Assembly (NCBI GenBank): GCA_016842085.1
Contig: JAEVEX010000034.1
Span: 26,371 to 90,370, forward strand
Source: Candidatus Thermoflexus tengchongensis
Lineage (GTDB): Bacteria > Chloroflexota > Anaerolineae > Thermoflexales > Thermoflexaceae
Direction: 5' to 3'
DNA length: 64,000 nt
The first letter of the stretch is position 1; each line of letters begins with the position of its first letter. A model generated the notes under the pieces. The model ran no database searches and had not been told where the DNA came from. It saw nothing but the letters and a program-made list of their open reading frames with translations. Positions 53,418 to 64,000 of this stretch are shown piece after piece. The translations under genes and the position numbers were made by a program.

Positions 53418-53551
53418 AGCCGATACCGGCGTCGTTCGGCTCGAATGGGAGGATCTGAGAGGATTTTTCCCCTATCGTCCCCAGAAGGAAGAGCCCCCTG
53501 CGAACGGCTATCATCTTTATGAGCGCATTCCATCCCCATCGGAGGTGTCCG

Positions 53552-54571
53552 ATGCGCGGGATCCGCACCCTGATCCAGGAGCTGTGGTGGTATCTCACGT
53601 ATGATTACTACGGCCGGCGCCGCCTCCGCCCGGCCGCTTACGCCCTCCTCCTCACCCTGGGGCTGGTCGCCGTCGTCTTCCTCTGGGCCTTCTTCCAGAG
53701 CCGCCAGGCCCTCCCCGCCGAGCGCCCCGCGCCCACCCTGCCCCCGCCCACGGCCACGGCGATCTTCGCCACGGCCACGGCCATCGCGTCCCGGCCCACC
53801 GCCACCCCGGCCCCCCTCTGCCCCGAGGACCCGCGGGTCTGGGCCCTGGTGGAGATCCGGCCCTTCCTGGACCCGAAGACCGGGAAATCCGTCCAGCTGC
53901 CCAAGCCGCCCCAGCGGATCGATCCGCCCTGCGTCTACGAGGCCCTGGCCCGGGACCTCGCCCGCACCCTGGTCCCGAACCCCGACGCCCCCATCCCCTC
54001 CGTGGCCGGGAAGACCCTCTCCGTCCCCTGGTTCTGGGCCCCGGGAACCGAGATCATCCAGACCCAGGTGGAGCCGGACCAGGCCCGCGACTTTGAGGCC
54101 TACTATGACGCCCGGGGGCGGAAGATCGATGACCTTTATCTGCCCTATACGGCCGTCGCCACCAGGGATCCCGACTTCCCGGTCCTGGTTTACATCTATC
54201 TGGATAGGCCTCAGCTGGCCTGGGGGACCCTGCACCGGGAAGGGGAGGAGGACCTCTGGGTCCGCTACGAGCTCCGGGGCGGGGAGGTCGTTCGTTCCAT
54301 CATCGTGATGGTCTACGACGCCAAAGCCCGGCGCTGGGTGCGGGGGGCTTATCCCCGGGAGGCCCCCACGCCCCGGGCGATCCACGCCGTCCCGGCGGGG
54401 TCGGCGGAGGATCTGGCGGGGCTGCTGGGCCTGCCCCTCTGGCGGCGGGGGGAGCTGCTGGCCCGCGCCGGCCTGAAGGACATCTTCCCCGATTCGGTCA
54501 ACCCGGCGACCATTCGCCCCCTCGGGACGTTGCGGATCAGCCCCGAGGGGTATGTGGTGGAAAGGAGGTAA
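53552..54571 (+). CDS. Hypothetical membrane-anchored protein with Pro/Thr linker
   Basis: GGAGGT RBS; single TM; PTLPPPTATAIFATATAIASRPTATP linker; strongly G/C-ending codons. Confidence 0.7.
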   Translation: MRGIRTLIQELWWYLTYDYYGRRRLRPAAYALLLTLGLVAVVFLWAFFQSRQALPAERPAPTLPPPTATAIFATATAIASRPTATPAPLCPEDPRVWALVEIRPFLDPKTGKSVQLPKPPQRIDPPCVYEALARDLARTLVPNPDAPIPSVAGKTLSVPWFWAPGTEIIQTQVEPDQARDFEAYYDARGRKIDDLYLPYTAVATRDPDFPVLVYIYLDRPQLAWGTLHREGEEDLWVRYELRGGEVVRSIIVMVYDAKARRWVRGAYPREAPTPRAIHAVPAGSAEDLAGLLGLPLWRRGELLARAGLKDIFPDSVNPATIRPLGTLRISPEGYVVERR

Positions 54572-54573
54572 GC

Positions 54574-55860
54574 GTGATGCGGCGGATCGCCCTCTCCCTG
54601 TTCCTCCTCGCCCTCCTCCTGGGGCCGGCGGGGGGATCCCCGCCCCCCGCCGCCGCCCAGGGGGGCGATGGCTGTCAAAGTGATATATGCCGTCTTGAGA
54701 TCGAGATCCAGACCTCCCAGGCCTGGCAGATCCCGGGCCGGGAGGCGCGGCGGTGCACGGGGACGTATCGCGTCGGGATGATCACCCGGGGGCGGCAGAA
54801 CCAGAGCTATTGCGCCGAGGTCCAGGTGGAGATCGACTGCGCCGGGAATGTCCAGGTGGTGGAGCGGTTCGGCGAGGGCGCGGATTTCTGCCCCACGGCC
54901 AACGCGGCCTGGAAGGCCTACTGCGATCCTGTCTCCCGGATGGGCGACGCCGGGGGCTTCTGCGACCTGGTGGACTACTACGGGAACCGCATCCGCCTGA
55001 AGGTGGAGGTCCCCAAGCACCGCTTCCGCATCGTCCCCTATCCCGTGGGCTTCGTGGCCCGGGAGGACCCCTGGGGGGTCTTCCATCCCACCGCCCGCCT
55101 GGTGTGGGAGACCCCGCCCTTCCCCCAGTATGCCGACTCCGGCTGGCGGCTGTGGACGTGGGGCGGAAATCGCGGCCCGGGGAGCGCGGACTTCCCCTGC
55201 GATCTGGACGAGGCGGGGCTGCTGGCCCGGAACGTCCCGGCCGGCACCGAGTGCCTGCGGCTGCAGCTGTGGGCCTCCCCGGGCTTCCAGGGGCTGGAAC
55301 CCACCCTCCTCCCGGGCCTGCTGCAGTATCCGGCGGCCCGGGTGAACATGGAGCTGATGCCCGGGCGGGAGGTGGCGATCAACTTCCCCTACGCCTCCCA
55401 TCCGGCCACGGGCGAGGTGAGCGAGTTGAAGTTTGGGGACCAGATCCTGCCGGCCTTCAACGGGTATTTCAACCGGTGGTGGCCGGTGCGCCTGCGGGTG
55501 GAGAAGAAGACGGTGCGGGACATCACCGGGACGGAGTGCCATCCGGTGGCGGCGGACGAGAAGGGGAAGCCGAAGGAGGGCGGGGACTGCTGGGTGACCC
55601 TCGGGGACCCGCCGGCGCTGTGGCCGGGGAAGCAGGTGACGGTGGTGAAGGAGAAGAAGTGGGAGGCGGAGAAGCGGGACGATCTCCTGCAGCTGAACCT
55701 GGATCCCTTTAACCGTCCGTGGCCGTATCTCCATCCGGACGGGGCGATCATCCGGGGGGCGGATCGGACCTGGCGGACGGGGGTGATCGTGCGGGGAGGC
55801 TACCCCTGGCTGTATCTCCCCCTGGCGGTGCGGGAGGGGCAGGGCGTGGTGACCCGGTGA
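54574..55860 (+). CDS. Hypothetical secreted Cys-rich protein
   Basis: Classic signal peptide (MRRIALSLFLLALLLG...AAAQ), about 12 Cys, GGAGGT RBS, coupled to the upstream gene. Confidence 0.75.
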   Translation: MMRRIALSLFLLALLLGPAGGSPPPAAAQGGDGCQSDICRLEIEIQTSQAWQIPGREARRCTGTYRVGMITRGRQNQSYCAEVQVEIDCAGNVQVVERFGEGADFCPTANAAWKAYCDPVSRMGDAGGFCDLVDYYGNRIRLKVEVPKHRFRIVPYPVGFVAREDPWGVFHPTARLVWETPPFPQYADSGWRLWTWGGNRGPGSADFPCDLDEAGLLARNVPAGTECLRLQLWASPGFQGLEPTLLPGLLQYPAARVNMELMPGREVAINFPYASHPATGEVSELKFGDQILPAFNGYFNRWWPVRLRVEKKTVRDITGTECHPVAADEKGKPKEGGDCWVTLGDPPALWPGKQVTVVKEKKWEAEKRDDLLQLNLDPFNRPWPYLHPDGAIIRGADRTWRTGVIVRGGYPWLYLPLAVREGQGVVTR

Positions 55861-55980: not shown

Positions 55981-57000
55981 CTATGGATAAACCAGCACTT
56001 TCAATGCCTCGTAGGCCCGCATGGCCTGATAGCCCTGCGGGGTTTCCTCCAGCGACAGCCGGTGGGTGATCAGACGCTCCACGGGCAGGCCCTCCGCGAG
56101 CAGGCGCAGCGCCTCCCGCATATCCGGCGGGCCGGCGGAGTAACTGGGGATCACCCGAATCTCCCGGAAATACAGCGTGTGGATGTCCACCGGCCAGCGA
56201 GCCTCCGGCGGCGTCGGCGTGAACAGCAACAGGGTTCCCCCAGACGCCACCAGGGACCATCCCAGCTCGATGGCCTCTACGGATCCGGGGCCCACCACGA
56301 CCAGATCGGCCCCCAGCCCATCGCTCTCCGCGCGGATCCGTTCGACGGCCCCGGAAGCGGGCACCGGGGCGATCCCGAGCTGCGCTCCGATCTCCAGGCG
56401 GGCGGGGATCCGATCGATCCCCCACACCCGCTCCGCGCCCCAGCGGAGCGCGACCATCCCGTGCAGCAACCCCATCACCCCCAGCCCGATCACCGCCACC
56501 CGATCCCCAGCGTGCACTCCGGCCCGCCGCAGGGCCTTCACCACCGTCGCCAGGGGCTCCGTGAACGCCGCGACCTCATCGGAAACATGGGACGGGATGG
56601 GGAGGAGATCCCGTTCCACAACCGGGGGAGGGACGATGGCATAGGTGCTCAGGCCGCCCGGGATCAGGCGGGTGGACCGCCAGGTCGGGCAGTGCACGTA
56701 ATCGCCCCGCTGGCAGAACCGGCAGGTTCCGCACGGCGCGTGGTGATGCACCACCACGCGCTCCCCTCCCCGGAAGGAGGCCACCCCCGGCCCCACCTCC
56801 ACCACCTCTCCGACCAGCTCGTGGCCGGGGGTGAGCGGGGCCTTCCGGGCCATATACCAGTCCATGATCTCCCCCGGGCACAGCCCGCAGACCCGGATCC
56901 GGACCAGCACCTCCCCTTCGGCGAGGGGCCGCAGGGGCACCTCGGCGATGCGGAGATCCTCCCGGCCGTGATAGATCACCGCCCGGGTATGGGAGATCAT
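55981..57000 (-). CDS. Zn-dependent (polyol/sorbitol-type) dehydrogenase
   Basis: GHE, CGTCRFC..C, EPLA (Glu ligand), GLGVMG. Confidence 0.9.
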   Translation of the reverse strand: MISHTRAVIYHGREDLRIAEVPLRPLAEGEVLVRIRVCGLCPGEIMDWYMARKAPLTPGHELVGEVVEVGPGVASFRGGERVVVHHHAPCGTCRFCQRGDYVHCPTWRSTRLIPGGLSTYAIVPPPVVERDLLPIPSHVSDEVAAFTEPLATVVKALRRAGVHAGDRVAVIGLGVMGLLHGMVALRWGAERVWGIDRIPARLEIGAQLGIAPVPASGAVERIRAESDGLGADLVVVGPGSVEAIELGWSLVASGGTLLLFTPTPPEARWPVDIHTLYFREIRVIPSYSAGPPDMREALRLLAEGLPVERLITHRLSLEETPQGYQAMRAYEALKVLVYP

Positions 57001-57395
57001 CCTTCCCCCTCCGATCGCTCCTTCCGGAGCAGCGCCTTATTCGGGATCACGCACAGGAAGCCGAAAGGCTCCTCGCCGACGTTCTCGAACTGATGGAGCT
57101 CCATGGGCGGGATATAGAGCACATCGCCCGCCTGAACCTCCACCATCTCCGAACCCAGGCGGGCGCGGGCGCGCCCCTGCAGGACCACCACGCCGTGGTC
57201 GTGGGGATGGACGTCCAGGCTGGAGCGGCATCCCGGAGGGAGCTCGAAATAGCGAAGGACGAAATACCGGGCGCGCTCCCGGGGCCCGATCAGCACCCGC
57301 CGGGATCCGCACACGCCCTCCGGTCCGGTGTAAGGGACCACCGGCACGCCCTCCCAGTCCCATCCCTCGGGCCTCCGCCGATGCACAATGCCCAT
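56997..57395 (-). CDS. Cupin domain protein (methylsulfurylase-like)
   Basis: WDWEGVP..Y, RYFELPPG..S.L..HPHDH, HQF, FGFLC. Confidence 0.85.
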   Translation of the reverse strand: MGIVHRRRPEGWDWEGVPVVPYTGPEGVCGSRRVLIGPRERARYFVLRYFELPPGCRSSLDVHPHDHGVVVLQGRARARLGSEMVEVQAGDVLYIPPMELHQFENVGEEPFGFLCVIPNKALLRKERSEGEG

Positions 57396-57420
57396 AGCGA
57401 GGCATCCTCCTATCCCTGGC

Positions 57421-58836
57421 TTATTTCTGCGACCCTTCCAGGAAGGCTTGAGGCCGGCGCCAGACCAGCGCCCACAATCCGAGATAAACCACCAGGTAAG
57501 CGATGGCCAGGATGAATCGAGGAAGATCTGATCGGTACCCGACCAGGAACCAGAAGATCTCGAGAATAGGCCAGGAAAGGGTCTTGAAGCCCGCTGCCAT
57601 TGCCGTGACGGTCTGCCCGGCTGGAACCTGAGCTCCTACCTGATGAGCGATCTGCGTGACCACAGGGGCCGTATCGGTGGCTACCAGCAGCATCAGAGGA
57701 ATAAAGACCAGCGCACCGTTCAGGATCCCACGGAAAATATTGCCCCTGGACGGAGCCACAGCCCAGATCAGCAGGAACACGAAAACCGAGAGATCCGCAA
57801 AGGGAACCACCCGGTTGCCTGGCAACAGCGCCGCGATCGGGAGCGCCAGGGGGATCAGGATCAGCGCCGTCGCCACGATGGCCGGAAAGCCGGTCACAAT
57901 TGCCGCATCCAGCCCGATGTAGAGCTCGCGGCCCGGGAAGCGACGGGTCATAAATGTCCGCACGCTTTCGGAGATGGGGATCAAACCCTCCATCAGCAAG
58001 GCGATCATACGCGGCATCAGCTCCATGAAGGCAGCCGTGGTGATCCCCAGTTTGAGGATGGCCGCTGCATCCTCCGCCGTCATCCCCGGCTTCAGATAGG
58101 CCAGGGCACCGATCAGCAACCCAATGATCAATCCAACGATGGCCGATTCCCCCAGCACTCCCAGCCGCCGCTGAATCCTCTCCGGGTCAATCGAAATCTC
58201 CCGCAAGCGGGGAATACGCTCCCAAAGGGCATCCAGAGCGAAGCCGATAGGTGCCCAGATCACGGTATCCCCATGAGGCAGAGAGATGCCCGGCATTTTG
58301 AAATAACCGCTAAGCACCGGCGCGGTCCAGTCCGCCAGCTTGAACAGGAAGGCGGCGTAGATCATGGCCCCTGCAAGGCCCAGCAACACGTTCTGACTCA
58401 CCGCCCAGATCATCGAGAACACATAGGCCATGGACCAGTAGTTCCAGAGGTCCACATCAAGGGTTTTCGTGAAGCCGATCAGGATAAGGAGGATGTTCCA
58501 CACGAAAATCACAATAAAGACGGTGAAAGCGAAGGGGGTCCCAAAGCTGATGGCGGCCAGGACCGGCCAGCCGATGTCCGGGATATCCAGGGGCAGCGCA
58601 AAGCGCCTGGACATCGCCTGGACAGCGGGGCCGAGCCCATTGATCAGCATGCCCAGCACCAGGAAGAGCCCCGTGAACCCGATCCCAACCCGCAGGCCGG
58701 CCCGGAAACTCCGTCCCGGCGGGGCTCCGAAGAGCAGGCCGAGGAGGAACAGGATGATCGGCATCATCACCGATACCCCGGCCGTCTGCACAATCCAGTT
58801 CATGAATGCATTGAGCGCCTGGATCCATCCGCTCAT
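57421..58836 (-). CDS. gatC: PTS galactitol-class IIC component, paralog 2
   Basis: GLRVGIGFTG, DIGWP, KTLDVDLWNYW, LLMEGLIPISE, YIGLDAAI, GNRVVPFADL. Confidence 0.88.
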   Translation of the reverse strand: MSGWIQALNAFMNWIVQTAGVSVMMPIILFLLGLLFGAPPGRSFRAGLRVGIGFTGLFLVLGMLINGLGPAVQAMSRRFALPLDIPDIGWPVLAAISFGTPFAFTVFIVIFVWNILLILIGFTKTLDVDLWNYWSMAYVFSMIWAVSQNVLLGLAGAMIYAAFLFKLADWTAPVLSGYFKMPGISLPHGDTVIWAPIGFALDALWERIPRLREISIDPERIQRRLGVLGESAIVGLIIGLLIGALAYLKPGMTAEDAAAILKLGITTAAFMELMPRMIALLMEGLIPISESVRTFMTRRFPGRELYIGLDAAIVTGFPAIVATALILIPLALPIAALLPGNRVVPFADLSVFVFLLIWAVAPSRGNIFRGILNGALVFIPLMLLVATDTAPVVTQIAHQVGAQVPAGQTVTAMAAGFKTLSWPILEIFWFLVGYRSDLPRFILAIAYLVVYLGLWALVWRRPQAFLEGSQK

Positions 58837-58920
58837 CGGCTCCTCCCTTCGTGGAGATCCGGGGGCTCGGGGCGGCCGCAGTGAAATTTGCGGCCGCCCC
58901 GAAGCGGGTTTCACACGCTT

Positions 58921-60312
58921 TCATGCCTCCGCCGGAGCCCCGGCGGCGACCTCCCAGGCCTTCGGGTTCCGCTGGTAGAGGAAGAGCGCGGCGGCCAGGA
59001 GAACCAGCAGGATCAGGAGCCCCAGCACTCCGGCCAGCCGCACAGCGCTCACGAAGACAAAGGGCGGCCAGAGGAAGCCATCGGCGATACTGGTGATCCG
59101 CACCGCACCCTCCGGCATCTTAAAGCCCGAGGCCACCGCCGCCGAGGTGAAGAGGTCCGCCATCCCGGTGGCGATGTAGAAGCCCACCGCCAGCGTGAGG
59201 GTGCCTGCGATGATCATGCGGAAGATGTTCCCCCGCATCAGAGGGGCGAACATCGCTACCACAAAGGGAATGACCGCAAGGTCCGCGAAGAGGATCACAC
59301 GATTGCCGGGCAGGATGGCGCTGAGCAGAATCGCCACCGGCACCAGCACCAATGCGGTCGAGATGGCCGCCGGATGGCCGATCAGGATCGCCGAATCCAG
59401 CCCGATGTAGATCTCCCGCCCCCCTGCCCGCCGTTGCATGAAGTCCCGGGCCGCTTCCGAAACCGGGATCAGGCCCTCCATCAGGATCTGAACCATCCGC
59501 GGCAGAAGGAGCATCACCGCCGCCAGATTCATCGCCGTTTTGAGGACTTTCACCACCACCGTCTGGACGTCGCCAGCGTTATAGAAGCCGAGGATCCCCA
59601 GCACCAGGCCGATGATCAGGCCCAGGATCACCGGCTCCCCCGCGACGCCCAGCCGGCGCCGGATCGCCTCCGGATCCGCCTGCACATCCCGCAGGCCCGG
59701 GATGCGGTCGATGATCCAGTTGACCACGATGGCGATGGGCACCCCAGGAGCCGTGGTGAGATGGGGAATGGAGATCCCGGGCAGCCCATAGAAACGCTGA
59801 ACCGCCGGTGCCGTCCAATCCGCGAAGAATAGGGCGAGCGCCGCAGCGATCGCCGCAGCCAGCAAGCCGAGCGGCAGGCTGCCCGTGGCGGCTACAACCA
59901 GCGAGCCGATGAACGCAAAATGCCAGTAATTCCAGATGTCGATGTCCAGCGTCTTGGTGAGACGGGCCGCCAGCATCAGGATGTTCACCAGAAGCGTCAG
60001 GGGGATCACCCACAGGCCGACGGCGGAGCCGAAGGCGATCGCCGCGGCCGATGGCCACCCCACATCCACTACATCCCGCTGGATGCCCGTGTTCTTCACC
60101 ATCGCCTGGGCGACCTCGGACAGGTTGGTCCACATCAGGCCGATGACCAGGTTGATCCCGATGAAGGCAATGCCGATGGTCACACCTGCCCGGAAGGCGC
60201 GCCCGGGTTGCGCGCCCAGGGCGACCGCAAACAGAAAGATGATGATCGGCAACGCGACCGTAGCCCCCAAGTTGTCGATGATGGCCTTCAGGGTGCTCAG
60301 GAAGACTTCCAT
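58921..60312 (-). CDS. gatC: PTS galactitol-class IIC component, paralog 1
   Basis: VDVGWP, KTLDIDIWNYWH, ILMEGLIPVSE, YIGLDSAI, GNRVILFADL. Confidence 0.9.
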   Translation of the reverse strand: MEVFLSTLKAIIDNLGATVALPIIIFLFAVALGAQPGRAFRAGVTIGIAFIGINLVIGLMWTNLSEVAQAMVKNTGIQRDVVDVGWPSAAAIAFGSAVGLWVIPLTLLVNILMLAARLTKTLDIDIWNYWHFAFIGSLVVAATGSLPLGLLAAAIAAALALFFADWTAPAVQRFYGLPGISIPHLTTAPGVPIAIVVNWIIDRIPGLRDVQADPEAIRRRLGVAGEPVILGLIIGLVLGILGFYNAGDVQTVVVKVLKTAMNLAAVMLLLPRMVQILMEGLIPVSEAARDFMQRRAGGREIYIGLDSAILIGHPAAISTALVLVPVAILLSAILPGNRVILFADLAVIPFVVAMFAPLMRGNIFRMIIAGTLTLAVGFYIATGMADLFTSAAVASGFKMPEGAVRITSIADGFLWPPFVFVSAVRLAGVLGLLILLVLLAAALFLYQRNPKAWEVAAGAPAEA

Positions 60313-60502
60313 GGCTACCTCCTTTGAGGGTTGGAATCGGAAATCGAGATTTTGAGGATCCGCAATCGCTTCCCTGCCGAACCCTGAAGACTCTGTATTT
60401 GCCCCAATCACCTCCTTTCTTGAATCCACAATTGTCAACCATGACGGGAAAAACCACGTCCCCTACTCCCACGGACCGCGAAAACCCGGATAGCACCCCG
60501 GC

Positions 60503-60796
60503 CTACCCAGAGCGGCGCAGGATCTCGGCGATCTGATCCAGCACCTGATCCTTCCCGATGCCTGTCAGAAAGGCCAGCGTCTGGATCACCGGGATCCCAA
60601 GGTCTGAAGGCACCGGGGTGGTGGTGACCACCAGATCGAAATCTTTCGCCAGCGCGGGGACCTCCGCCGCCTTGCACTGGCGGGTGATCACCGGGATGCC
60701 CCGCGCCGCCAGCCCCTCCTCGATCGCTTTGGCTACCACTGTGGAGGTCGCGATGGCGGTGCCGCACGCCACCAGCACACGCTTGGGTTGGGTCAT
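60503..60796 (-). CDS. gatB: PTS galactitol-class IIB component
   Basis: VLVACGTAIATSTVV phospho-Cys loop, FLTGIG. Confidence 0.92.
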   Translation of the reverse strand: MTQPKRVLVACGTAIATSTVVAKAIEEGLAARGIPVITRQCKAAEVPALAKDFDLVVTTTPVPSDLGIPVIQTLAFLTGIGKDQVLDQIAEILRRSG

Positions 60797-60811
60797 AGAC
60801 ACCTCCCAGGC

Positions 60812-61306
60812 TCAGTTCAAAAGATCGATCGCCCGGATCAGCTCCTCAGGGGTTTGGGCCTCGTAAACCTGCCGTACACGTTGAGGCTCCTGAAAGAAAG
60901 CTGCCAGACGCTGCAGCATCTCGATCTGGGAATGAGGTTCATCTAAAGCCATCAGGATCACGATGGAGACCGGCACCATTTCCTCGGGGTTCACCATATT
61001 GCGGAAAATCACTGGCCGTGCCAGGGTGGCGATGGCCAGGGCCGGCGCGATCACATGCACAACATCCGCATGCGGGATCGCCACATGCAGATCCCCTGCT
61101 AATGGGAGGCCGGTGGGATGGGTTCGCTCCCGCTCCAGCACGGCTTCCACGAAGGAAGGACGAACAAGCCCCTCCCTCTCCAGCCGGGCGGCCAGCTCAC
61201 GGATCACCTCTTCCGCAGAGGAGGCTTCCATCCGCAGGATCACCAGACGCTCGGACAACGTTACTTTCCGGATCGCAGCTGATGAGTGAGCCGAAGACTC
61301 CGTCAT
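60812..61306 (-). CDS. gatA: PTS IIA component (galactitol/fructose class)
   Basis: VLERERTHPTGL, VAIPHAD phospho-His, F.NM. Confidence 0.9.
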   Translation of the reverse strand: MTESSAHSSAAIRKVTLSERLVILRMEASSAEEVIRELAARLEREGLVRPSFVEAVLERERTHPTGLPLAGDLHVAIPHADVVHVIAPALAIATLARPVIFRNMVNPEEMVPVSIVILMALDEPHSQIEMLQRLAAFFQEPQRVRQVYEAQTPEELIRAIDLLN

Positions 61307-61317
61307 CGAAGCCTTCC

Positions 61318-62619
61318 TTATCCCAGCAGGATCCCCGGGCGCTCCAGAACCATGCGCAGGTCGTCCAGGAAGCGGGCGGCCTGGGCGCCGTCCACGATGC
61401 GATGATCCGCCGTCAGGGTGAGGGTGGCCATCGGGCGGACCTCCACGCGGTCCCCCTCCCCAACTACCGGACGTTTCGCCACCCGGCCCACGGCCAGGAT
61501 GGCCGTCTGGGGCGGGTTCAGGATCGCCGTGAAGCGGTCCACCCCATACATCCCCAGGTTCGACAGGGTGAAGGTCCCCCCCTGCACATCCTCGGGCCGC
61601 AGACGTCCCTCCCGCGCCCGCTTCGCTTTCTCCTCCAGAACCTGCGCGATCTCCACCAACCCTCGTCGATCGACATCGTGGATCACCGGGACCACCAGGC
61701 CCTCGGGCACAGCGACCGCCACGCCGATGTTCACGGCTTCCCATTCCAGGATTTCTTCCCCTTCCAGAGTCGCGTTGAGCGCCGGATGCCGCCGTAACGC
61801 CCAGGCGCAGGCCTTCACCACCAAGGCCGTCAGGGTCACTCGAGGCCCGCCCTCCCGCTCCGCCCACGCCGCCAGATCCTCCACCAGGGCCAGCGCCCGG
61901 CCCATCTCCACGTCCACACTGACCGTGAACTGGGGCGCTTCCCGCACGCTTCGGAGCATCCGCTCCGCGATGATCCGCCGCATCCCACTCAGCGTCACCC
62001 GCCGGCGGATCGCCGGACGGGCAGGGGCTTCCGGCTCTACCGCGCGGCGCAGCGCCTCCGCTGCCCGCCGCACATCCTCCGACTGGATCCGACCCCCCGG
62101 CCCGGTTCCCTGGACCGTGTGCAGATCCACCCCCAGCTCCCGGGCCAGCCGCCGCGCCGCGGGGACCGCCCGGATCTTATCCCCGGCTTCACCTGGAGCG
62201 CGCTGAGCCAGGTAAGCCTCCACATCCGCCTTCGTCACCCGTCCCCCCGGCCCGGTGCCGGGAACGGCGTGGATCTCCACGCCGTGGGCCCGGGCCATGC
62301 GTTCGGCCACCGGGGTCGCCCGGGGGACCTCGGGGGCGGCCGCCGGAGAGGGTGTGGGGGAAGGTACCTCCCCGGTTTCGCCGGGTTGCAGAATATAGGC
62401 GATGGGCTGGCCGATCGGCACCACCTCGCCAGGGCCCACCCGGATCCCCACCAGCGTCCCGCTGGCCGGCGCTTCCACCTCCATGGCGACCTTATCGGTC
62501 TCCACCTCCAGGATGGGCTCGCCCTTCGCCACCGGCTCCCCCTCCCCCTTGAGCCAGCGGAGGATCTTCCCGCTCTCCTGGGCCATCTCGAATTTCGGCA
62601 TAATGACCGGGACCGGCAT
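61318..62619 (-). CDS. 2-oxoacid/acetoin dehydrogenase complex E2 (dihydrolipoamide acyltransferase)
   Basis: Lipoyl VETDKV, two E3-binding repeats (GTGPGGR), GGTFTLSNLG, DHRIVDG. Confidence 0.95.
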   Translation of the reverse strand: MPVPVIMPKFEMAQESGKILRWLKGEGEPVAKGEPILEVETDKVAMEVEAPASGTLVGIRVGPGEVVPIGQPIAYILQPGETGEVPSPTPSPAAAPEVPRATPVAERMARAHGVEIHAVPGTGPGGRVTKADVEAYLAQRAPGEAGDKIRAVPAARRLARELGVDLHTVQGTGPGGRIQSEDVRRAAEALRRAVEPEAPARPAIRRRVTLSGMRRIIAERMLRSVREAPQFTVSVDVEMGRALALVEDLAAWAEREGGPRVTLTALVVKACAWALRRHPALNATLEGEEILEWEAVNIGVAVAVPEGLVVPVIHDVDRRGLVEIAQVLEEKAKRAREGRLRPEDVQGGTFTLSNLGMYGVDRFTAILNPPQTAILAVGRVAKRPVVGEGDRVEVRPMATLTLTADHRIVDGAQAARFLDDLRMVLERPGILLG

Positions 62620-62639
62620 GCGTTCCAGCGCCTCCTCCC

Positions 62640-64000
62640 TCAGATCTCCAGGCGCGCCAGCCGTCGGGCCGCCTCGACGATGTCTTCCACCTGGGGAACC
62701 GCCGCCCGCTCCAGGCGCGGATGATAGGGAATGGGGACATCCGCCCCGCCCAGCCGCACGATGGGCGCCTCCAGATACGCGAAGGCTTCACTCTGGGCAA
62801 TAGCGGCAGCCAGCTCCCCTCCAAAGCCGCCCAGAAGGGGCGCCTCGTGGACGATGAGCAGCTTGCCGGTCTTCTTCACCGACGCGATCACCGTCTCCGC
62901 ATCGTAAGGCTTCAGGGTGCGCAGATCGATCACCTCCGCCTCGATCCCTTCCGCCGCCAGCCGCTCCGCCGCCTCCAGGGCCCGCAGCACCATCAAGGAG
63001 TAAGCCACGATGGTCAGGTGCCGGCCGGCCCGCCGCACCGCCGCGCGCCCCAGGGGGACGACATACGGCTCCTCCGGAACGGGCCCCCGGGTTCGATAGA
63101 GCAGTTTGTGCTCCACAAAGATCACCGGGTTATCATCGGCCAGGGCGGCCAGCAGCAATCCCTTGGCATCGTAAGGTGTGGCGGGCGCCACCACTTTCAA
63201 TCCGGGCACGTGCACAAACCACGCCTCCAGGCTCTCGGAGTGCTGGGCCGCCGCCCCCGTGCCCGATCCTCCGGGAAGCCGCAGCACCAGGGGAACCCGG
63301 GCCTTTCCCCCGAACATGTAGCGGACCTTGGCGGCCTGGAGGACCGTCTGCTCCATCGCCAGGGTGACGAAGTCCATGAACTGCATCTCCACGATGGGCC
63401 GCATTCCGGTCAGCGCCGCGCCCACCCCTGCGCCCACAATGGTGTTCTCAGAGATCGGCGTATCCCGCACCCGATCCGGCCCGAACCGCTCGATCAACCC
63501 CTGAGTCACCCCGAAGGCACCGCCGTAGACCCCGATATCCTCTCCCATCAGGAAGACCCGCTCGTCGGCGGCCATCGCCTGAGCCATCGCCTCCCGCAGC
63601 GCCTCCGCGTAAGAGATCTCCCGCGCCCCGGGGGGTGGCTCCACCGCGATCCCCGGCCCGAACGTCTGGCGGATCCAGAGGGGCGGCATGTGGGGATCTT
63701 CCACATAGACCCCTTCGGTCAGCTGGTCCACCCGGGGCTCGGGATCTCCCTCCGCAGCCCGCAGCGCCTCTTCGATGGCCTGCCGGGCCCGCGCTTCGAT
63801 CTCCGCTGCCTCCGCCTCCGAGAGCCACCCCTGGGCGATCAGCCAGGCGCGGAAGCGGGCGATGGGGTCCCGGGCCATCCAGGCCTGCACCTCCTCTTTC
63901 GTGCGGTAGACCTGACGGTCGCTCTTCGAATGTCCTTTGTAGCGATAGGTGATCGCTTCGATGAGGGTGGGGCCTTCCCCGCGCCGGGCCCGCTCCACCG
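62640..64000 (-). CDS. Fused E1 alpha-beta ThDP-dependent dehydrogenase (acetoin/2-oxoacid type), begins beyond the right edge
   Basis: TYRYKGHS..D (alpha C-terminus) continuous with MGEDIG..GG, DTPISE, QFMDF, AAQHS, VIDLRTL (beta). Confidence 0.92.

Follow-up and report, generated by a model that had tools for sequence, protein, structure and literature searches.

The stretch of DNA analysed here, referred to as the window, comprises 64,000 nucleotides of the genome of Candidatus Thermoflexus tengchongensis (contig C64, positions 26371-90370; assembly of 3.9 Mb, 64.5% G+C, completeness 95%), and its end is occupied by a gene cluster that joins the E1 and E2 components of a 2-oxoacid-dehydrogenase-type complex to a sugar phosphotransferase system (PTS). 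Genes were called from a listing of open reading frames (ORFs) and from scans with Pfam and NCBIfam models, and the DNA past the window end was read as well (L001). On the minus strand the gene order is SorC-type regulator, E1 alpha-beta, E2, IIA, IIB, IIC-1, IIC-2, cupin and Zn-dehydrogenase, the regulator and the E1 N-terminus being situated just past the window end (position 64000). An earlier note, made from the letters of the window, had described the eight genes from E1 to the dehydrogenase as lying on one strand with short gaps, and all of them were found there. The gaps amount to 20 nt between E1 and E2, 11 nt between E2 and IIA (with a ribosome-binding site, GGAAGG), 15 nt between IIA and IIB, about 64 nt between IIB and IIC-1, 6 nt between the two IIC genes (or about 84 nt, if an internal Met is the start of IIC-2) and 25 nt between IIC-2 and the cupin gene, which overlaps the dehydrogenase gene by 4 nt. 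Since the genes downstream of the Zn-dehydrogenase are convergent, the operon ends at the dehydrogenase. Neither the ORF list nor the domain scans gave a kinase, aldolase or tagatose-pathway gene in the operon, in line with the same note.

The fused E1 alpha-beta component, a thiamine diphosphate (ThDP) enzyme of 685 aa with the Pfam domains E1_dh, Transket_pyr and Transketolase_C, is encoded at 62640-64697 on the minus strand (L001:640-2697), and its C-terminal 452 of 685 residues lie inside the window (62640..64000). It is 92% identical to the E1 of Thermoflexus hugenholtzii. The alpha part passes TIGR03182, the equivalog model for the E1 alpha subunit of pyruvate dehydrogenase (PDH) of the “y” type, by a narrow margin (403.2 bits at a cut-off of 393.85), the beta part passes the PDH beta subfamily model, and the dxs model yields 86 bits against a cut-off of 466. 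The E2 dihydrolipoyl acyltransferase (433 aa; 61318-62619, minus; Biotin_lipoyl, E3_binding and 2-oxoacid_dh) consists of a lipoyl domain, one or more E3-binding (PSBD) domains and a catalytic domain. Its best NCBIfam match is TIGR01349, the E2 of the PDH complex, with 350 bits under a cut-off of 445.

The PTS genes encode separate IIA, IIB and IIC proteins. EIIA (164 aa; 60812-61306, minus; PF00359, E = 1.4e-31) belongs to the mannitol/fructose/galactitol class and carries the His motif “VAIPHAD”; EIIB (97 aa; 60503-60796, minus; PF02302, E = 1.3e-12) has its N-terminal Cys in “VLVACGTA.” Their best NCBIfam matches, GatA (65 bits) and GatB (58 bits), remain under the respective cut-offs of 139 and 95. 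Both permeases are of the Gat family and both have an uncertain start: EIIC-1 (58921-60438, minus; PF03611, E = 2.9e-85) begins at TTG 60438 or ATG 60312 and scores 462 bits on TIGR00827, and EIIC-2 (57421-58914, minus; PF03611, E = 4.5e-76) begins at GTG 58914 or ATG 58836 and scores 402 bits, with a cut-off of 542 in both cases. The domains (PF03611 twice, PF00359 and PF02302, all above gathering scores) place the system in the PTS galactitol family (GatABC, TC 4.A.5). As in the gatYZABCDR and ula systems of E. coli, a EIIC-GAT-type permease stands with separate IIA and IIB and, at the position of GatD, a Zn dehydrogenase is found, but the four Gat equivalog models (GatA, GatB, GatC and GatD) are missed by far, GatY/GatZ and UlaD/E/F/G are absent, and the cupin and E1/E2 replace the aldolase step. 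The presence of two IICs of different lineages is a further difference. EIIC-1 and EIIC-2 share 43% identity: the former clusters (support 100/99) with E1-linked IICs of L014, G184, L017 and Rhizobium rhododendri (82% identity to that of L014, 67% to that of R. rhododendri), the latter (100/100) with the IIC of locus L055, which has the order IIC-SDR-cupin-ZnADH-E1-E2 (SDR, short-chain dehydrogenase/reductase; ADH, alcohol dehydrogenase), and with the IIC of a Limnochordales contig that also has an SDR. Because the two are members of different clades, a recent tandem duplication was ruled out.

The general PTS components HPr and EI, which the earlier note had not seen in the window, are indeed outside it and adjacent to each other on contig C10, and candidates for E3 (lpd), which it had proposed to look for, were located on contigs C85 and C16. 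No other Gat or Gut PTS components were found in the genome. The Gat-type system is thus its only sugar PTS and matches the single PTS that is listed, as “ascorbate,” for Thermoflexus (PMC8129789). The view that sugar PTS are uncommon in Chloroflexota also held, with a Gat-type IIC in 17 of 401 sampled genomes.

The small metal cupin (132 aa; 56997-57395, minus; Cupin_2, E = 5e-16, with a weaker match to MannoseP_isomer) has a His-rich metal motif, “HPHDH...H.” The nearest solved structures are uncharacterised cupins and the Mn-cupin TM1459, followed by weak matches to cupin-type phosphoglucose isomerases, and we propose that it may act as a sugar-phosphate isomerase or rearranging enzyme. The Zn-dependent medium-chain dehydrogenase (339 aa; 55981-57000, minus; ADH_N and ADH_zinc_N) has the ligands of both the catalytic and the structural Zn as well as an Asp-type NAD fingerprint; it is probably NAD-dependent and polyol/threonine-dehydrogenase-like, its nearest structures being Thermus ADH, ketose reductase and xylitol, sorbitol and threonine dehydrogenases. 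On the GatD model it reaches 82 bits (cut-off 550). Cupin and dehydrogenase co-occur with E1/E2 in L055, where the cupin occupies the same position (44% identity; dehydrogenase 39%), and across Thermoflexus. The complete Thermoflexus genome CP076326.1 has the order SorC-E1ab-E2-IIA-IIB-IIC-1-cupin-ADH, with a dehydrogenase 86% identical to that of the window; the operon there lacks IIC-2, and an insertion of about 1.13 kb, with small ORFs only, interrupts the cupin gene after codon 90 (L061:15839-17367), so that the distal end of the operon varies within the genus. IIC-1 is likewise joined directly to the cupin gene, without IIC-2, in a relative seen in hot-spring metatranscriptome contigs. 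A paralogous cupin/ADH pair on contig C87 has uninformative neighbors (a two-component system, a MerR regulator and a CHAT protein).

The sequence past the window end contains, upstream of E1, a regulator gene that had not been in the earlier reader's view (L001:2690-3793, minus; PF04198, E = 1.5e-66) and shares 8 nt with the start of E1. With an N-terminal helix-turn-helix and the PF04198 sugar-binding domain it belongs to the SorC/DeoR(Bsu)/LsrR family, and its scores on the DeoR and LsrR equivalog models are far under the cut-offs. Its true start is likely the ATG at L001:3646. A perfect sigma-70-type promoter (TTGACA-17 nt-TACAAT, L001:3717-3689) precedes this start, and 3' of it, 6 nt upstream of the likely start, lies the palindrome TCACATTTGTGA, a candidate SorC operator that occurs once in the 3.9-Mb genome; by sequence match, promoter and palindrome together cover L001:3652-3717, equivalent to window positions 65652-65717 on the minus strand. 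A generic promoter scan had no match in the part of the operon that lies in the window, where the terminator-like matches are weak intragenic hairpins. No public RNA run contained the DNA of the window itself. Contigs of relatives, mostly 80-95% alike, came from three hot-spring metatranscriptomes; together they extend over the operon between the dehydrogenase and E1, the E2-IIA junction being bridged by one and IIC-1, IIB and IIA being covered by another, and from contigs of this kind neither transcription nor a single transcript can be proven. The best explanation of the arrangement, which we hold to be somewhat more probable than its opposite, is one sugar-phosphate-inducible catabolic operon under a SorC-type repressor. 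As to the flanking genes, a gene for a 766-aa GAF-domain histidine kinase (L001:3821-6121, minus) stops 27 nt short of the regulator ORF in its long form. On the other side lies a pair of adjacent ORFs (350 and 428 aa; window 53519-55860, plus), convergent with the operon and preceded by lgt and a thioredoxin-like gene; their third-position G+C is high, at 0.90-0.91, and they have no Pfam match.

The linkage of E1/E2 with a PTS extends far beyond Thermoflexus. Among ten Gat-IIC loci fetched from Chloroflexota, E1, E2 and a SorC regulator adjoin in six, in several gene orders. As the group should not be defined by the feature being counted, the same 401 genomes were searched in a second survey with the E1 beta domain alone, and the 14 top loci were fetched. 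Six of these have a Gut (sorbitol-class) PTS, a DXR-II-like oxidoreductase gene (DRL; PF21135 plus SAF), HPr, EI and a SorC regulator round E1/E2. Two (L042 and L051) have DRL-E1-E2 with no PTS in 20 kb, one with a split transketolase and a fucose-isomerase-like gene and the other with an ABC transporter nearby. EI and an IspD-like gene mark one locus, another is a 5-kb contig, and the remaining four are without such context. In a maximum-likelihood tree the four context-less loci fall outside and all others form one clade with the window E1 (95/98). After the addition of members from Bacillota and Rhizobium, obtained by a protein search of annotated plasmids and chromids, the E1 beta clade counts 24 sequences from Chloroflexota, Bacillota and Alphaproteobacteria (98/99), of which 23 have a PTS of the Gat or Gut class, DRL or both as neighbors and one is on a 5-kb contig. 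Brevibacillus laterosporus combines a Gat-type IIA-IIB-IIC and a large regulator with E1a-E1b-E2-lpdA and SorC, Priestia aryabhattai has a Gut PTS divergent to E1a-E1b-E2-lpdA-SorC, and in Rhizobium rhododendri Gat IIA and IIC are divergent to GutM, a Gut PTS, PtsP, SorC, DRL and E1a-E1b-E2. A classic aco operon, on an Enterococcus plasmid, turned up in the same search. The layouts of metagenome relatives include SorC-E1ab-E2-IIA-IIB-IIC-HPr-EI, E1ab/E2 with a gene of the orotidine-monophosphate (OMP) decarboxylase family and microcompartment shell genes, and IIC-SDR-cupin-ZnADH-E1a-E1b-E2 (L055). The linkage on which the earlier note had built its proposal is thus present in three phyla, in shuffled orders and with an E1 clade of its own, and therefore argues for a pathway role of E1/E2 downstream of the PTS.

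The genome has four E2 genes, those of the C11, C25 and C47 sets and that of the window. The C11 set is the best PDH candidate (443.7 bits for E1 alpha on TIGR03182, 424 bits for E2 on TIGR01349), the C47 set is x-type and resembles branched-chain 2-oxoacid dehydrogenase (BCKDH), and the C25 set, which adjoins an aldehyde dehydrogenase, is probably the acetoin-type complex of the genome. In the C25 set (L019:6201-12453) an M24/DddP-like gene of 490 aa lies between E1 beta and E2, and the aldehyde dehydrogenase after E2 is lactaldehyde-dehydrogenase-like. The linked clade excludes all three paralogues as well as the Enterococcus aco E1. In a test of PDH orthology the window E1 beta stood apart from the clade formed by C11, G043_b, G279_c and G111_b, and the aco E1 beta, the single aco reference included, grouped with C25 (96/90). 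The designation of the window E1 as acetoin-type in the earlier note has therefore to be given up: the aco-operon E1 groups with C25, whereas the linked clade is nearer to PDH-type clades and has active-site substitutions of its own. Judged from tree and motifs, the window E1 belongs to a third, cross-phylum subfamily that is neither housekeeping PDH nor classic acetoin dehydrogenase.

These substitutions emerged from positions conserved in at least 90% of the linked E1 clade and rare outside, namely H48, T50, K258 and S259 in the alpha part and A394, T480 and A482 in the beta part. They give rise to the clade motifs “HGT[MT]HL” and “GHS[KR]SD,” which read “HGTMHL” and “GHSKSD” in the window E1 and are common to the Bacillota and Rhizobium members. 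Aligned to human E1 alpha, the first corresponds to “RGFCHL” and the second to “GHSMSD” (H263, S264), i.e., F61 is changed to Thr and R59 to His, and a Lys follows the His-Ser pair, whose catalytic His and Ser are kept; the channel residues of the PDH E1 alpha active site (human F61; H263-S264-M) are thus altered in the window E1. The motifs are absent from the E1s of C11, C25 and C47 and from the Enterococcus aco E1, which has “PGFVHL,” with the active-site Phe retained, and “GHFEGD.” In human E1 alpha, H263 is catalytic and S264 (phosphorylation site 1) lies at the mouth of the substrate channel; with this location, the added Lys, the His and the smaller Thr would occupy places where a larger anionic leaving group could bind. 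By clade, motifs and neighboring polyol PTS the window E1 falls into the PTS/DRL-linked subfamily, of which no description was found in the searchable literature.

DRL is the most frequent partner enzyme in the E1 clade. Along its entire length, the DRL of the islands aligns with Brucella DXR-II (E = 1.6e-100), an enzyme whose known pair of compounds is MEP (2-C-methyl-D-erythritol 4-phosphate) and DXP (1-deoxy-D-xylulose 5-phosphate). IspG and DXR-I are lacking in four of five DRL-island genomes (98-99% complete) and both are present in the fifth, so that none of them depends on DRL for making isoprenoids. Chloroflexus aurantiacus possesses an active DXR-II, yet uses the mevalonate pathway only (PMC3847144), and the sorbitol PTS of Salmonella imports 2-C-methyl-D-erythritol (Testa et al., 2004, as cited in PMC3994034). 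The islands with Gut PTS and DXR-II (L004, L005, L043-L049 and L059, from Chloroflexota, Rhizobium and Bacillota) share with the window the E1 clade, the signature residues and the SorC regulator, and often an IIC-1-type Gat permease; the window differs in that it has no Gut PTS and no DRL, that the cupin and Zn-ADH fill the oxidoreductase slot, and that its E1 is fused. The Thermoflexus genome encodes an HMG-CoA reductase (C59:13973-15082), and no DXR, DXS or IspG was found in it at a completeness of 95%; isoprenoids would therefore be made by the mevalonate route, which appears to be the only one used. The context in the relatives (DRL and no MEP pathway) points to 1-deoxyketose phosphates that give acetyl-CoA rather than, as in the route of the earlier note, to ordinary ketose phosphates made from polyols of the galactitol type.

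On the evidence of linkage, clade and context we are inclined, by a modest preponderance, to the view that the substrate of the E1/E2 complex is a phosphorylated alpha-hydroxyketone derived from the PTS, with a 1-deoxyketose phosphate such as DXP as the likeliest candidate, and that it is cleaved to acetyl-CoA and an aldose phosphate; DXP in particular is possible as the substrate, and this narrower claim we put forward tentatively. In the proposed sequence of events the only sugar PTS, with EI and HPr from C10, whose components are all present, would take up one or two sugars or polyols of small size and phosphorylate them. From the phosphate of the IIC-2 substrate the Zn-dehydrogenase and the metal cupin would make a phosphorylated alpha-hydroxyketone. 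IIC-1 might deliver the E1 substrate directly, and IIC-2, dehydrogenase and cupin might feed a related compound into the same step. E1 alpha-beta/E2, together with an unlinked E3, would then attack the keto carbon through ThDP, release the aldose phosphate and pass the two-carbon unit to lipoamide to give an acyl-CoA and NADH. With a 1-deoxy-2-ketose phosphate as the likeliest class of substrate, the reaction of DXP would yield acetyl-CoA and glyceraldehyde 3-phosphate, an oxidative reverse of the DXP-synthase reaction. The pathway would be assembled from known kinds of parts, and it is the chemistry that we infer.

The best analog of the proposed chemistry is the Aco system, as found for example on the Enterococcus faecium plasmid NZ_CP128994 (sigma54-regulator-lpdA-E1a-E1b-E2-butanediol dehydrogenase), in which an alpha-hydroxy methyl ketone is converted to an acetyl-lipoyl unit and an aldehyde. 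Both systems have a heterotetramer-type ThDP E1, a lipoyl E2 and a medium-chain Zn dehydrogenase that supplies, or here would supply, the ketone. In contrast to Aco, the window operon has a SorC-type instead of a sigma-54 AcoR regulator and no E3, and it is PTS-coupled, wherefore its substrate should be phosphorylated. DXP, with the structure CH3-CO-CHOH-R, is a phosphorylated analog of acetoin, and attack of ThDP at C2 would leave hydroxyethyl-ThDP for the lipoyl E2. Enzymes of the DXS type belong to the same ThDP superfamily, act on the C2-C3 bond of a pentulose 5-phosphate and have glyceraldehyde 3-phosphate as partner, and the proposed reaction would be the oxidative reverse of the second half of theirs; they differ in having no lipoyl-E2 coupling and no CoA ester product, and their sequence relationship to the window E1 is distant. 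We found no prior description in the literature on methylerythritol catabolism, on DXR-II with a sorbitol PTS or on deoxyxylulose with acetoin dehydrogenase.

A more detailed version can be imagined in which IIC-1 imports 1-deoxy-D-xylulose to give DXP, IIC-2 imports a polyol such as 2-C-methyl-D-erythritol, and the Zn-dehydrogenase and cupin act as a split, non-orthologous and reversed DXR-II (MEP to 2-C-methylerythrose 4-phosphate to DXP), after which E1/E2 would cleave DXP to acetyl-CoA and glyceraldehyde 3-phosphate; the sugars would be shed by neighbors using the MEP pathway, e.g., mat cyanobacteria. This version is distinctly unlikely, but if true it would represent a catabolic reversal of the MEP pathway's first two steps in an organism of the mevalonate route.

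Several observations weigh against cleavage of a 1-deoxyketose phosphate. The proposed substrate is deduced from neighbors in other genomes, and the Thermoflexus genome has no DRL homologue (tblastn, E <= 1e-6), no Gut PTS and no IspD-like gene at its completeness of 95%; it thus falls outside the DRL islands, and the link to DXP is an indirect one in this organism. The placement of the clade residues in the active site comes from the alignment to human E1 alpha and general knowledge of its structure, and the RNA contigs are those of relatives, from which a single transcript is not provable. Furthermore, the E1 alpha part does pass, marginally, NCBI's equivalog cut-off for PDH E1 alpha; in G184 and G266, both of them small genomes, no PDH-type E1 other than the clade member was found with this query at E <= 1e-30, and this member could therefore be their PDH; and the islands that hold a PTS and E1/E2/E3 only (Priestia, Brevibacillus and L014) fit equally well a consumer of the pyruvate that the PTS makes.

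These last points lead to the main rival, an ordinary PDH that is co-regulated with the PTS and removes PTS-made pyruvate to acetyl-CoA, while dehydrogenase and cupin feed glycolysis independently. A PDH of its own would make sense in such an island because each PTS transport event turns phosphoenolpyruvate into pyruvate, and the minimal islands, made up of PTS, E1/E2(/E3) and regulator and often EI and HPr, are in keeping with it. The model scores of both E1 parts speak for it, and the highest sequence similarity of the complex is indeed to alpha2-beta2 PDH such as human PDHA1/PDHB (248 bits for human E1 alpha) and Geobacillus PdhAB, with the same E2 architecture. However, the window E1 belongs to a separate clade that crosses phyla, its change of Phe to Thr and its added Lys, like the His at R59, are absent from the PDH clades, and it is a fused alpha/beta protein encoded inside a PTS operon under a sugar-phosphate-type regulator. 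A better PDH candidate (C11) and a pyruvate:ferredoxin oxidoreductase (PFOR) are present in the Thermoflexus genome; PFOR is also present in G184 and G266, for which reason we set aside the argument that a sole E1 in a small genome must be PDH. To our knowledge, PDH genes are not linked to the PTS in classical PTS organisms. The loci L042 and L051, where DRL-E1-E2 stand without a PTS in 20 kb, argue against a mere pyruvate sink. We therefore regard an ordinary PDH as unlikely.

About as improbable is a second rival, in which the complex is an oxidative decarboxylase of a phosphorylated 2-oxo sugar acid, or cleaves a non-deoxy ketose phosphate (xylulose 5-phosphate or tagatose 6-phosphate) to glycolyl-CoA and an aldose phosphate, the latter being the route of the earlier note in its general form. 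The Gat/Asc IIC superfamily includes the acid-sugar transporter UlaA, and L010 and L017 encode UlaD-like (OMPdecase) and UlaF-like (aldolase_II) proteins, which in E. coli lead to xylulose 5-phosphate; the Zn-ADH resembles ketose-making polyol dehydrogenases, and the change of Phe to Thr could accommodate a C1 hydroxyl. Against this, the operon offers no obvious sink for glycolyl-CoA, the window contains neither an acid-forming dehydrogenase nor a lactonase, xylulose 5-phosphate is already a central metabolite for which a dedicated cleavage complex is unnecessary, and the commonest partner in the clade is a close homologue of DXR-II, the enzyme of MEP and DXP. Very unlikely, finally, is an acetoin/2,3-butanediol-type system with the Zn-ADH as butanediol dehydrogenase, E1/E2 cleaving acetoin and the PTS a neighbor or regulatory partner only, since, for all that acetoin dehydrogenase E1s are close relatives, that (R,R)-butanediol dehydrogenase is among the PDB matches of the ADH (78 bits) and that E1/E2 stand with Zn-ADH, SDR and microcompartment shell genes in L016 and L017, as for an aldehyde-producing step, the aco E1 groups with C25 outside the linked clade and without its motifs, a sigma-54 AcoR-type regulator is absent from the operon, the partner conserved in three phyla is a complete PTS with a sugar-phosphate-type SorC regulator, and acetoin needs no PTS; in its classic form this system is excluded by the E1 tree and the type of regulator.

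Some loci of the E1 clade have a gene content that deserves mention in its own right. The co-directional block of L042 (L042:2363-12281, genome G061) comprises a GntR regulator, an L-fucose-isomerase-like gene, a GFO oxidoreductase, a split transketolase (N and C), DRL, E1a, E1b and E2, and from this gene content we read it as a PTS-free version of the proposed pathway. The closest E1ab/E2 outside Thermoflexus (67-69% identity) lie on the metagenome contigs L016 (L016:10001-21300) and L017 (L017:1955-19260), where they are followed by an OMP-decarboxylase-family gene (HPS/KGPDC-like), BMC-H, BMC-T, EutN/CcmL, a PanB-like gene, Zn-ADH and SDR, to which L017 adds a Gat PTS, HPr, EI, a class II aldolase and a GFO oxidoreductase. 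The main text of the bacterial microcompartment (BMC) catalogue makes no mention of a microcompartment with E1/E2 as candidate signature enzyme. The sugar-phosphate-utilising (SPU) microcompartment was considered and rejected, as it is defined by DERA, which is absent here, and as E1/E2, PDH and PTS do not occur in the SPU literature and the BMC catalogue consulted. On the R. rhododendri plasmid NZ_CP117270 the island adjoins thiC, thiO, thiS, thiazole synthase, a thiE-like gene and thiD (L059:15489-20698), an adjacency that may not be due to chance because DXP is the thiazole precursor.

If the proposed cleavage is correct, it would constitute a third natural job for complexes of the 2-oxoacid-dehydrogenase type beyond 2-oxo acids and acetoin, namely the conversion of a sugar phosphate to acetyl-CoA, with an oxidative C-C cleavage tied to the PTS in at least three phyla. 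The result would be a new catabolic route and a function for genes that carry the automatic annotations “pyruvate dehydrogenase” and “galactitol/ascorbate PTS,” and it would offer an explanation of the active DXR-II in bacteria without the MEP pathway (PMC3847144). The Thr/His/Lys signature provides a simple sequence rule by which these E1s can be told from true PDH in annotation. For Thermoflexus, of which no defined carbon source is known (PMC8129789), the operon yields concrete candidate substrates that are testable on a cultured strain.

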